Shown here piece after piece: positions 16,060 through 55,450 of a stretch of 64,000 nt of DNA; position 1 is the stretch's first letter; each line of letters opens with the position of its first letter. Below the pieces are notes generated by a model. The model was not told the DNA's origin. It was given only the letters and a program-made list of their open reading frames with translations, and did not search any database. The stretch comes from Candidatus Bathyarchaeota archaeon (GTDB taxonomy: Archaea > Thermoproteota > Bathyarchaeia > 40CM-2-53-6): NCBI GenBank assembly GCA_963833125.1, contig CAWHWX010000016.1, positions 160,001 through 224,000 on the forward strand. Reading direction: 5' to 3'. Position numbers and translations under genes: made by a program.

Positions 16060-16494
16060 CTAATCCTTCAGATGCTTGCCAACCATTACCAAATCTGAAT
16101 GAGTTTCATAACCGCGTGCCGCGAAGAATTTCTGAGATTTCGTATTCGACTGGTAGATTTGAGCATTAATCTTCTTTGCTCCCTTCTCAATCAGACGTTT
16201 CTCAACTTCGCTCAGCAGAGTGGTGGCTATCCCTTGTCTCTGGTGCGAAGGCTTCACGGCTAGGTGGTAAACCCAACCGCGTCTCCCGTCCCACCCACCG
16301 ATAATGCACCCAACAATCTCACCCTCAAGATCCGCAAGAAGGAATAGGTCTGGATCTCGAAGTAATTTCATACGAACTCCGTTTAATTCGTCTCCCGGTC
16401 TGATAACCAAACCCGCATCCTTCCACAACTCAAGAACCACATTGTAATCGTTCATCAGAAATTCGCGAATCTGAATCTTCGGCAAGTCAATCAT
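16060..16494 (-). CDS. GNAT N-acetyltransferase (YpeA-like)
   Basis: GGWDGRRGWVYHLAV.P.HQRQGIA; N....FF...GY. Confidence 0.9.
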   Translation of the reverse strand: MIDLPKIQIREFLMNDYNVVLELWKDAGLVIRPGDELNGVRMKLLRDPDLFLLADLEGEIVGCIIGGWDGRRGWVYHLAVKPSHQRQGIATTLLSEVEKRLIEKGAKKINAQIYQSNTKSQKFFAARGYETHSDLVMVGKHLKD

Positions 16495-16513
16495 CTAGGA
16501 TTCTACAAATCGT

Positions 16514-16644
16514 TGGCGCCGCCGGCAGGGCTCGAACCTGCGACCAACGGGTGTCTGCCCGTTTAACAGCTTCAGCTCCTTCTTGCGAAGGATCCGCTGC
16601 TCCACCACTGAGCTGTCGTCTGCGCATTATGTGCATACGGCGGC
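16514..16644 (-). tRNA. tRNA-Asn(GTT) with three BHB/BHL introns at 8/9 (16615-16636), 30/31 (16571-16593) and 37/38 (16553-16563); CCA encoded
   Basis: Removing the three introns gives GCCGCCG TA GCTC AGTGGTG GAGC A GCGGG CT GTT AA CCCGT TGGTC GCAGG TTCGAGC CCTGC CGGCGGC G CCA. Each intron has a 4-bp helix flanked by 3-nt bulges. Confidence 0.92.
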
Positions 16645-16688
16645 TAGGGTATGCGTTCGGCGGCGTTCGCGCATTTCCGGTTGGCGCT

Positions 16689-16988
16689 TTATTTGTTCTC
16701 CGGAATGGGTTGTTGCTGCTGCCATGAGCCGCAGAACGCGCATTTGCGTACACCCTCCGGTATTAGCGATCCACAGGATTTACAATTCACCAGTTTCTCA
16801 AGCTCGAATATTGGTTCAGCTGTCTTCTGACGAAGCGTTCTGATCCACCAAGCTCGACCCAACATAAGGACTACCACCGCCACGATAGCAAGAATTGCGA
16901 CCGTTAGGGTCGAGAGCAATTGCAAGAGCGCCAGAGATTGTGTTACATAGGGCCTGGCATAACATCTTCGCTTAGGAACGTGCACCAT
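16689..16988 (-). CDS. Membrane-anchored zinc-ribbon protein (true start probably ~16930)
   Basis: One TM helix followed by CKSC...CAFC. Confidence 0.7.
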   Translation of the reverse strand: MVHVPKRRCYARPYVTQSLALLQLLSTLTVAILAIVAVVVLMLGRAWWIRTLRQKTAEPIFELEKLVNCKSCGSLIPEGVRKCAFCGSWQQQQPIPENK

Positions 16989-53686: not shown

Positions 53687-53761
53687 AATCCCTTCTTTCC
53701 CCTCGTACGCACGCTTAAAATAGATTGTAACCGCGTTAGTCGGCTTGCTCCGGGCTTTAGG

Positions 53762-53888
53762 GCTCCGGTAGAAGCTTAAGCTACCGAATATAGCCCGGTC
53801 AAGTCGCGTGACGCCGAAAGTATGTTGGCCTCTCGAGTTATGGAGAGAGTCAGCGACGTCGCGGGTTCAAATCCCGCCCGGAGCACCA
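53762..53888 (+). tRNA. tRNA-Glu(CTC) with three BHB/BHL introns at 10/11 (53772-53788), 20b/21 (53802-53818) and 37/38 (53836-53847); CCA encoded
   Basis: Spliced sequence: GCTCCGG TA GTAT AGCCCGGTCAA GTAT G TTGGC CT CTC GA GTCAG CGACGTC GCGGG TTCAAAT CCCGC CCGGAGC A CCA. TATA (TTAAAA) at ~53715 and a T-tract after the gene. Confidence 0.9.
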
Positions 53889-55343: not shown

Positions 55344-55450
55344 GGGCCCGTAGCTCAGCTAGGCTAGAGCGACAGACTACGAATGTCGAAGCTCATATGA
55401 GGATCGGAGGAACCTGCTGGTCGAGGGTTCGAATCCCTCCGGGCCCACCA
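55344..55450 (+). tRNA. tRNA with CAT anticodon, most likely tRNA-Ile2, with introns at 30/31 (55376-55390) and 37/38 (55398-55411); CCA encoded
   Basis: Spliced sequence: GGGCCCG TA GCTC AGCTAGGCTA GAGC G ACAGG CT CAT AA CCTGC TGGTC GAGGG TTCGAAT CCCTC CGGGCCC A CCA. The GGGCCC acceptor is Ile-type, not the initiator A1-U72. Confidence 0.88.

Follow-up and report, generated by a model that had tools for sequence, protein, structure and literature searches.

The stretch analysed here, called the window throughout, comprises 64,000 nucleotides (nt) of contig CAWHWX010000016.1 (positions 160,001 to 224,000 of the forward strand) from the genome assembly GCA_963833125.1 of a Candidatus Bathyarchaeota archaeon. 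Coordinates are window positions unless another contig is named. On the minus strand, read from 16644 to 16514, lies a gene for a transfer RNA (tRNA), tRNA-Asn(GUU), that is interrupted by three introns of 22, 23 and 11 nt. Because the D-loop lacks position 17, these inserts fall at the standard positions 8/9, 30/31 and 37/38, respectively. Removal of the three introns in silico leaves a 75-nt tRNA-Asn(gtt) with an encoded CCA, for which ARAGORN reports a flawless cloverleaf spanning residues 1-75. An initial annotation of the window had described a three-intron tRNA-Asn gene and an exact regeneration of the tRNA on splicing, and the sequence, the positions and the spliced product found here all agree with that description. 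Absent from it is the most unusual part of the locus, a new element: the leader contains an exact and conserved spare copy of the 5' strand of the acceptor stem (Table 1).

Table 1. Features of the tRNA-Asn locus and the two splicing endonuclease paralogues of the genome; the last two rows give contig coordinates.
Feature	Coordinates	Strand	Remarks
TATA-like box, A/T-rich, AAATAAAG	16687..16694	-	candidate promoter of the tRNA-Asn gene
Spare copy of the acceptor 5' strand, GCCGCCG	16658..16664	-	in the leader, 20 nt upstream of G1
Leader spacer, 13 nt	16645..16657	-	last bases lengthen the outer helix of the intron-1 motif through pairs to the D-stem and the D-loop (5' side)
Exon 1, G1-U8 (acceptor 5' strand and U8)	16637..16644	-	perfectly complementary to the 3' strand, 16524-16518
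Intron 1, 22 nt, 8/9	16615..16636	-	inner hairpin 16635-16630/16626-16621; H' GACG 16620-16617; ends in two bulge bases, AC
Exon 2, A9-G30 (D-arm and 5' side of the anticodon stem)	16594..16614	-	
Intron 2, 23 nt, 30/31	16571..16593	-	6-bp inner hairpin, GCAA loop
Exon 3, G31-A37 (anticodon GUU inside)	16564..16570	-	
Intron 3, 11 nt, canonical 37/38	16553..16563	-	anticodon stem serves as outer helix
Exon 4, A38 to the encoded CCA	16514..16552	-	3' side of the anticodon stem, variable loop, T-arm, CGGCGGC, discriminator G
EndA paralogue	C34:61341-61595		
EndA paralogue	C14:18748-18987		weaker on the catalytic-domain model; touches beta-subunit models

The gene escapes standard detection, as the initial annotation had expected. 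ARAGORN called no tRNA in the unspliced 221 nt or in a run over the whole window, and the Rfam tRNA model scored the unspliced locus at 28.6 bits, below the gathering score of 29, with an alignment whose acceptor strand is incorrectly placed within intron 1 and mispaired. In the 3.07-megabase (Mb) assembly, which is 87.8% complete, ARAGORN run with introns returned 35 tRNAs, none of them with the anticodon gtt, and BLAST of the mature tRNA-Asn against the assembly found no locus other than 16644-16514. Neither search found a second, intact tRNA-Asn gene in the assembly; the initial annotation had stated that such a gene, together with a lack of spliced product, would count against its proposal. 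The rejection by standard finders would also fit a pseudogene or an assembly artefact, but such an explanation is hardly credible: this is the sole Asn gene found, its 69 counterparts in many genomes show conservation along with compensatory changes, and the same unspliced sequence occurs in independent DNA and RNA-library contigs. The contigs compared were those of three RNA-library runs from two studies and of one DNA run; the RNA-library contigs cover 16507-16652 in unspliced form. Taken jointly with the maturation scheme developed below, we consider it rather probable that the locus, the sole Asn gene found in the assembly, is a working tRNA-Asn(GUU) gene.

All three introns are bounded by bulge-helix-bulge (BHB) motifs. 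Each has a central helix and at least one flanking helix, and their removal restores the canonical cloverleaf. In the layout used here, each strand of the motif has four helix bases followed by a 3-nt bulge, and is cut after the second bulge base. For intron 1, acceptor bases C3-C6 face GACG with three of four pairs formed and a mismatch at C5.A, G7-U8-A and A-C-A9 make up the bulges, the outer helix consists of 3 base pairs (bp) between A(-1)G1C2 and G10C11U12, and the intron side carries an inner hairpin of 3+2 bp. The same helix, mismatch, bulges and leader A at position -1 had been drawn in the initial annotation. As this motif takes acceptor bases 1-6 together with leader bases, it cannot coexist with the acceptor stem, which bears out the earlier claim that the BHB is incompatible with a folded stem.

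To what extent the intron-1 motif is conserved was assessed in related genomes. Of 61 relatives, 51 have the tRNA-Asn locus, and a wider sample of 251 genomes of the class yielded it in 125. We examined 90 loci, 30 in a first set and 60 fetched in addition, of which 83 were parsed; the seven others include L154, in which the 8/9 intron and the leader copy are both present, and L157, which is another tRNA. An insert at 8/9 is present in 69 of the 83 parsed loci (17-46 nt, 59 distinct sequences) and absent in the remaining 14. The parser demanded GCCGC[CT]GT before the D-arm, so that the U following the exon-1 strand in 69/69 loci defines the set and is not a finding. In each of the 59 distinct introns, the central helix has at least three of its four pairs in the expected register, as against 0-5 of the 59 in registers shifted by 1-3 nt. 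The intron strand of this helix, H', reads GACG in 33 of them, GGCG (a perfect 4 bp) in 23 and GGTG in 3, and the full 4/4 helix occurs in 26. At least three contiguous pairs form in the inner hairpin of 46 of the 59, compared with 5.7% of shuffles. Covariation was evaluated on a MAFFT alignment of 35 distinct sequences with a 13-pair structure, in which 86.4% of alignment cells are paired versus 24-48% with slid partners; all five pairs of the inner hairpin change on both sides, and none of 500 shuffles matches the observed covariation score. Chance alone does not account for the intron-1 motif. When named genomes were scanned for the pattern, 118 matches were returned, mostly chance ones in bacteria, and the archaeal matches listed are all titled Bathyarchaeota or Bathyarchaeia.

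Several loci depart from the common form. Four members of another family (L152, L153, L175 and L193) have longer 8/9 introns of 32-46 nt, with H' reading GGTG in the first three and GGCG in the fourth. The inner hairpin of L152 and L153 is set apart from H' by a few unpaired bases, and the motif is therefore relaxed, not canonical. The tRNA-Asn gene L154 (G102) has introns at 8/9 and 30/31, and a 31-nt insert in the T-arm, at about 61/62, replaces the 37/38 intron.

The motif of intron 1 reaches beyond the mature tRNA, as the initial annotation had proposed in stating that it borrows the 5' leader. Among the 59 distinct leaders, position -1 is A in 40 and G in 10, so that 50 of 59 are able to pair with U12, and position -2 is G in 40, able to pair with C13. 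In minimum-free-energy folds the end of the leader pairs with G10-G18, and in the genus of the window further pairing with the D-loop is possible. The pairing of -1 and -2 in most leaders supports the borrowing, and the conservation of these bases fits the related proposal that splicing would precede the 5' trimming by RNase P.

Intron 2 has a complete motif of its own, with a 4/4 central helix between C25-C28 and GCUG and the BHB parameters (4,6,2), and this motif is present in 30/30 loci of the first set. The central helix of intron 3 is likewise fully paired (C32-U35 with GCAG, 4/4), with no inner helix in this gene, and its BHB parameters are (4,0,1) with intron 2 in place and (4,0,7) once intron 2 is removed. 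The dependence recurs in all 21 three-intron loci, where the outer helix of the 37/38 motif has 1 bp before and 7 bp after removal of the 30/31 intron. The count of 21 out of 30 is a lower bound, since the spliced aligner fused exon 3 with the introns on either side of it (introns 2 and 3) in L011 and L014, both of which look three-intron by eye. Brute-force removal of BHB-like inserts followed by ARAGORN, applied to six loci, gave thousands of permissive calls and served only for the motif parameters of the named introns. The initial annotation had put removal of the 30/31 intron before that at 37/38; this order is structurally sound, although the principle that one intron goes first is already in print (PMC8450103) and is not new here. 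Since the first motif uses the 5' strands of both the D-stem and the acceptor stem, and the second uses the 3' strand of the D-stem, the precursor is not cloverleaf-shaped, with the exception of the T-arm.

The spare acceptor strand in the leader accompanies the 8/9 intron. A second exact GCCGCC(G) lies 12-21 nt upstream of G1 in all of the first 30 loci. Over the parsed loci, an exact GCCGCC occurs 12-31 nt upstream in 67 of the 69 with an 8/9 intron, versus 1 of the 14 without it (L150). The two intron-bearing loci without an exact copy are L197, in which a single C-to-T change still pairs by G.U, and L151, which has a 5-nt partial copy. A G directly follows GCCGCC in 54 of 57 distinct copy-bearing leaders, and the single-base variants of the copy (L197, L247 and L263) are all C-to-T and keep their pairing with the 3' strand. 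Further upstream, an A/T-rich 8-mer ends 20-25 nt before the leader copy in 26 of 30 orthologous loci. In archaea, the usual distance from the TATA box to the start of transcription would put the start at or beside the spare copy. From this spacing we infer a transcription start at or near the copy, which would then lie within the transcribed leader.

Folding was predicted with a nearest-neighbour model, with precursor ensembles over 29 loci. The spare copy paired with the 3' acceptor strand in 6/6 minimum-free-energy folds, and the stem formed by these two has a median ensemble probability of 0.97 in the precursor. For the native acceptor stem, the median probability in the precursor with the copy is 1.8e-5, whereas values range from 0.002 to 0.94 when the transcript begins just after the copy. 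An acceptor stem of seven G-C pairs would outcompete the weak central helix of motif 1; together with the folding probabilities, this leads us to see in the copy a substitute partner that keeps the 3' strand occupied. A different use can be imagined for the copy, which has the same C3-C6, could pair with H' and is interchangeable in sequence with the real strand: it might compete with that strand for GACG and so provide an alternative 5' splice site with a regulatory or quality-control role. We regard this as quite improbable, given that all seven bases of the copy are conserved where pairing with H' needs only four, that the inner hairpin abuts the real copy and not the spare one, and that the variants retain pairing with the 3' strand.

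The promoter spacing also fits a second alternative, in which the tRNA really begins with the upstream copy as its first exon, the spacer and the downstream copy form a fourth intron, and the transcript is leaderless. The folding model, as described below, continues after splicing to favour an acceptor stem made with the upstream copy, and in L016, L152 and L153 both copies are followed by U. However, the base after the upstream copy varies among the 57 distinct copy-bearing leaders (A 35, G 14, T 4, others 3), whereas U8 always follows the downstream copy, the latter being a condition of the parser. Moreover, removing the spacer and one copy either leaves U8 as a one-base exon or gives a tRNA without U8, and of 59 distinct leaders only 1 allows so much as a relaxed BHB when all 8 equivalent registers are considered. 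We reject this possibility as very improbable.

The association between an early intron and a leader copy is not confined to tRNA-Asn. Among 34 CCA-bearing tRNA candidates in this genome, 4 have a leader copy of at least 6 nt of their own acceptor strand: GCCGCCG in tRNA-Asn, GCCGGGG in tRNA-Cys, GCTCCGG in tRNA-Glu and GCGGGG in a class-II tRNA. All four fall among the five genes in which the first intron lies at 8/9 to 10/11. In the relatives, tRNA-Cys has the 8/9 intron and the GCCGGGG copy together in 26/26 loci and neither in 3/3. For tRNA-Glu(CUC), a 10/11 insert goes with a GCTCCGG copy in 20/20 loci, of which 19 are exact and one has a C-to-T change that pairs by G.U. Nine tRNA-Glu(CUC) loci have no 10/11 insert; seven of these have no copy, one has a mutated near copy and one an exact copy. 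The last two belong to the window's own genus, as would be expected after a recent loss of the intron there. At the level of sequence, the link spans three tRNA families with different acceptor strands and several separate losses.

The window itself contains a second interrupted tRNA gene of the same design, at 53747-53888 on the plus strand, which is probably tRNA-Glu(CUC). It starts at 53762 and its CCA ends at 53888, with a 17-nt insert at 10/11 (53772-53788) whose central helix pairs C5-U8 with ACCG. Its spare copy, GCTCCGG, occupies 53747-53753, and a TATA-like box is present at 53715-53722. The ARAGORN call for this gene, a tRNA-Gln with a 151-nt intron, is wrong.

The enzymes required for such a pathway have candidates in the genome. 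An RNase P RNA is found with 178 bits, as are two EndA paralogues of 185 and 190 amino acids, each with the N-terminal and catalytic domains (PF02778 and PF01974). The presence of two paralogues would fit a heterotetrameric endonuclease of broad specificity.

With these elements in mind, we consider it probable, though well short of certain, that the locus is a tRNA-Asn gene with three BHB introns, in which a spare strand holds the 3' acceptor strand and imposes an ordered maturation. According to this scheme, transcription would begin at or near the spare copy, 20 nt upstream of G1, and the copy would pair as a decoy with the 3' acceptor strand of the precursor. The real 5' strand, thus freed, could build the BHB of intron 1, with C3-C6 pairing with GACG, G1, C2 and leader bases -1 and -2 pairing with the 5' strand of the D-stem, and the intron hairpin closing the motif. 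At the same time intron 2 would present its own complete motif, made in part from the 3' strand of the D-stem, in a precursor that apart from the T-arm would not be a cloverleaf. A two-subunit splicing endonuclease would then cut introns 1 and 2, and only with intron 2 gone would the anticodon stem form the outer helix needed by the 11-nt intron 3. Finally, the real 5' strand would displace the spare copy, after which RNase P would remove the leader. A refolding-dependent, ordered pathway had been put forward in the initial annotation; it is structurally well supported by the motifs, though unproven.

Several observations weigh against this scheme. The probability of the strict intron-1 BHB is only 1e-5 to 1e-8 in the nearest-neighbour model. 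It is higher with the copy than with a transcript started after the copy in 28 of 29 loci, at least 5-fold so in 21, but a shuffled G/C heptamer raises it about as much as the real copy, and we do not count this measure as support. After full splicing the model still favours the spare-copy stem, with a median of 0.97 versus 7.5e-4 for the native stem, so that the proposed hand-over would need something outside the model, such as tertiary folding, capture by RNase P or a helicase. The tRNA loci compared (Asn, Cys and Glu) are related, and their counts are not independent events. At the RNA level, no splice joints were found in the contigs of the three RNA libraries, where rare or short forms are dropped and DNA carry-over is possible; these contigs do not reach the spare copy and end 1 to 8 nt upstream of G1, although contig ends are not interpretable. 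The fifth gene with an early intron, on contig C32, has a strong 8/9 BHB and no leader copy, the intron-bearing L151 has just the 5-nt partial copy, and in L150 (tRNA-Asn) and L264 (tRNA-Glu) an intact leader copy stands without an early intron. The C32 gene (C32:9741-9952, minus strand, locus L214) is the clearest exception: a class-II tRNA with the acceptor strand GCGGGGG and a 24-nt 8/9 intron, the motif of which has a 4/4 central helix, an inner helix of 7 bp and an outer helix of 3 bp.

The exceptions in both directions, together with the lack of a sequence-specific gain in the shuffled-copy test, would suit another explanation, namely that the gene and its introns are real and the leader copy is a neutral relic of their origin without a role in splicing. 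Such a relic could have arisen by a small duplication or be an old integration repeat, and integrating elements are known to leave direct repeats of the 5' parts of tRNAs (PMC3293823). We nevertheless think this unlikely. The copy is exact in 67/69 Asn, 26/26 Cys and 19/20 Glu loci, although its surroundings (spacer, intron and upstream leader) show free divergence over several families and orders. Conversely, it is missing in 13/14 Asn, 3/3 Cys and 7/9 Glu loci that lack the intron. In addition, the distance to the TATA-like box is constant and variants of the copy still pair with the 3' strand. The loci L150 and L264, as well as the tRNA-Glu locus L263 with its one-base-mutated copy, look like recent intron losses in which the helper has not yet decayed.

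If the spare strand holds the 3' strand in this manner, one may speculate on a wider role. It may be a dedicated cis-acting RNA helper, general to those archaeal tRNA genes in which the first intron consumes the 5' strand of the acceptor stem. Situated at the 5' end of the transcript, it would capture the 3' strand, keep the precursor in a splice-competent misfold and impose the sequence of splicing, strand exchange and RNase P cleavage, perhaps also serving as a checkpoint against RNase P processing or aminoacylation of unspliced tRNA, and it would be lost together with the intron. We see this generalization as evenly poised between being right and being wrong.

The wider tRNA set of this organism appears to be similarly fragmented. 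Above threshold, there are only 18 Rfam tRNA matches in the whole 3.07-Mb genome, indicating that most of its tRNA genes are interrupted. Most of the 34 CCA-bearing candidates have inserts a short way past the D-loop. Interruption seems to affect almost all tRNAs of the set, a level similar to that reported for some Asgard families. The sole tRNA of the window that Rfam accepts, with 49.5 bits, lies at 55344-55447 on the plus strand, and ARAGORN assigns it as tRNA-Arg(acg) with a 12-nt insert. Next to the tRNA-Asn gene, an open reading frame of 144 amino acids (16060-16494, minus strand) begins 20 nt beyond the CCA, in the same orientation.

Introns in archaeal tRNAs are usually treated as self-contained motifs. 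Here, if the proposed scheme is correct, an essential tRNA would mature by way of a fold that is not that of a tRNA and that draws on the leader, in which a short conserved element appears to have arisen in evolution so as to permit this fold. This would represent a new type of cis-acting RNA chaperone in tRNA biogenesis, and would explain the persistence of introns at the junction of the acceptor stem and the D-arm. In practical terms, a repeat of the first seven bases of a tRNA could then serve as an annotation mark for tRNA genes that go unnoticed where the tRNA complement of an uncultured archaeon, be it from Bathyarchaeia, Asgard or another group, looks incomplete.

For Thermoproteales and Thaumarchaeota there are good descriptions of BHB introns that are non-canonical or multiple, with as many as three in one gene (PMC4090602, PMC4033280, PMC8450103). 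These occur in lineages with a two-subunit endonuclease, a type that the two EndA paralogues of the present genome may represent, and the introns of the tRNA-Asn gene resemble them in being short, BHB-bounded, up to three in number and located also outside 37/38 (PMC4090602, PMC4033280). As in multiple-intron genes of the Thermoproteales type, three BHB introns occur together, with intron 3 dependent on the removal of intron 2 in 21/21 loci. Unlike the cases from Thermoproteales and Thaumarchaeota, the present introns occur in Bathyarchaeia, and the 8/9 site consumes the 5' strand of the acceptor stem, is a fixed feature of several families, and is shared in the genome by tRNA-Asn, tRNA-Cys and two other tRNAs.

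Among search tools, tRNAscan-SE 2.0 allows for the case that one intron has to be taken out before the next BHB can form, and seeks introns near the ends of the tRNA with 60 nt of flanking sequence (PMC8450103). This is a search procedure, and the passages that describe it mention no conserved leader element or spare acceptor strand. A 2026 preprint on Asgard archaea reports that most tRNA genes are interrupted, that many inserts are missed by the annotator and that inserts lie at BHB boundaries; inserts in the acceptor stem and at junctions are treated there as few, and the word 'leader' occurs 0 times in the main text. The Asgard genes described in that preprint are thus similar to ours in their heavy and partly hidden interruption, but belong to a different phylum. 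Our literature search, which did not cover the published maps of intron positions, returned no description of a spare acceptor strand in a tRNA leader and no paper on tRNA introns of Bathyarchaeia.

The nearest precedents for a flanking sequence that takes part in splicing come from other kinds of precursors. In ribosomal RNA (rRNA) precursors, pairing between leader and trailer builds a BHB. In split tRNAs, flanking RNA that is not part of the mature molecule builds or permits the BHB before the ends are trimmed (PMC3293823). In both of these the flank is itself a strand of the BHB helix, whereas the role proposed for the spare copy in the tRNA-Asn leader is indirect, in that it would occupy the strand that competes with the motif.

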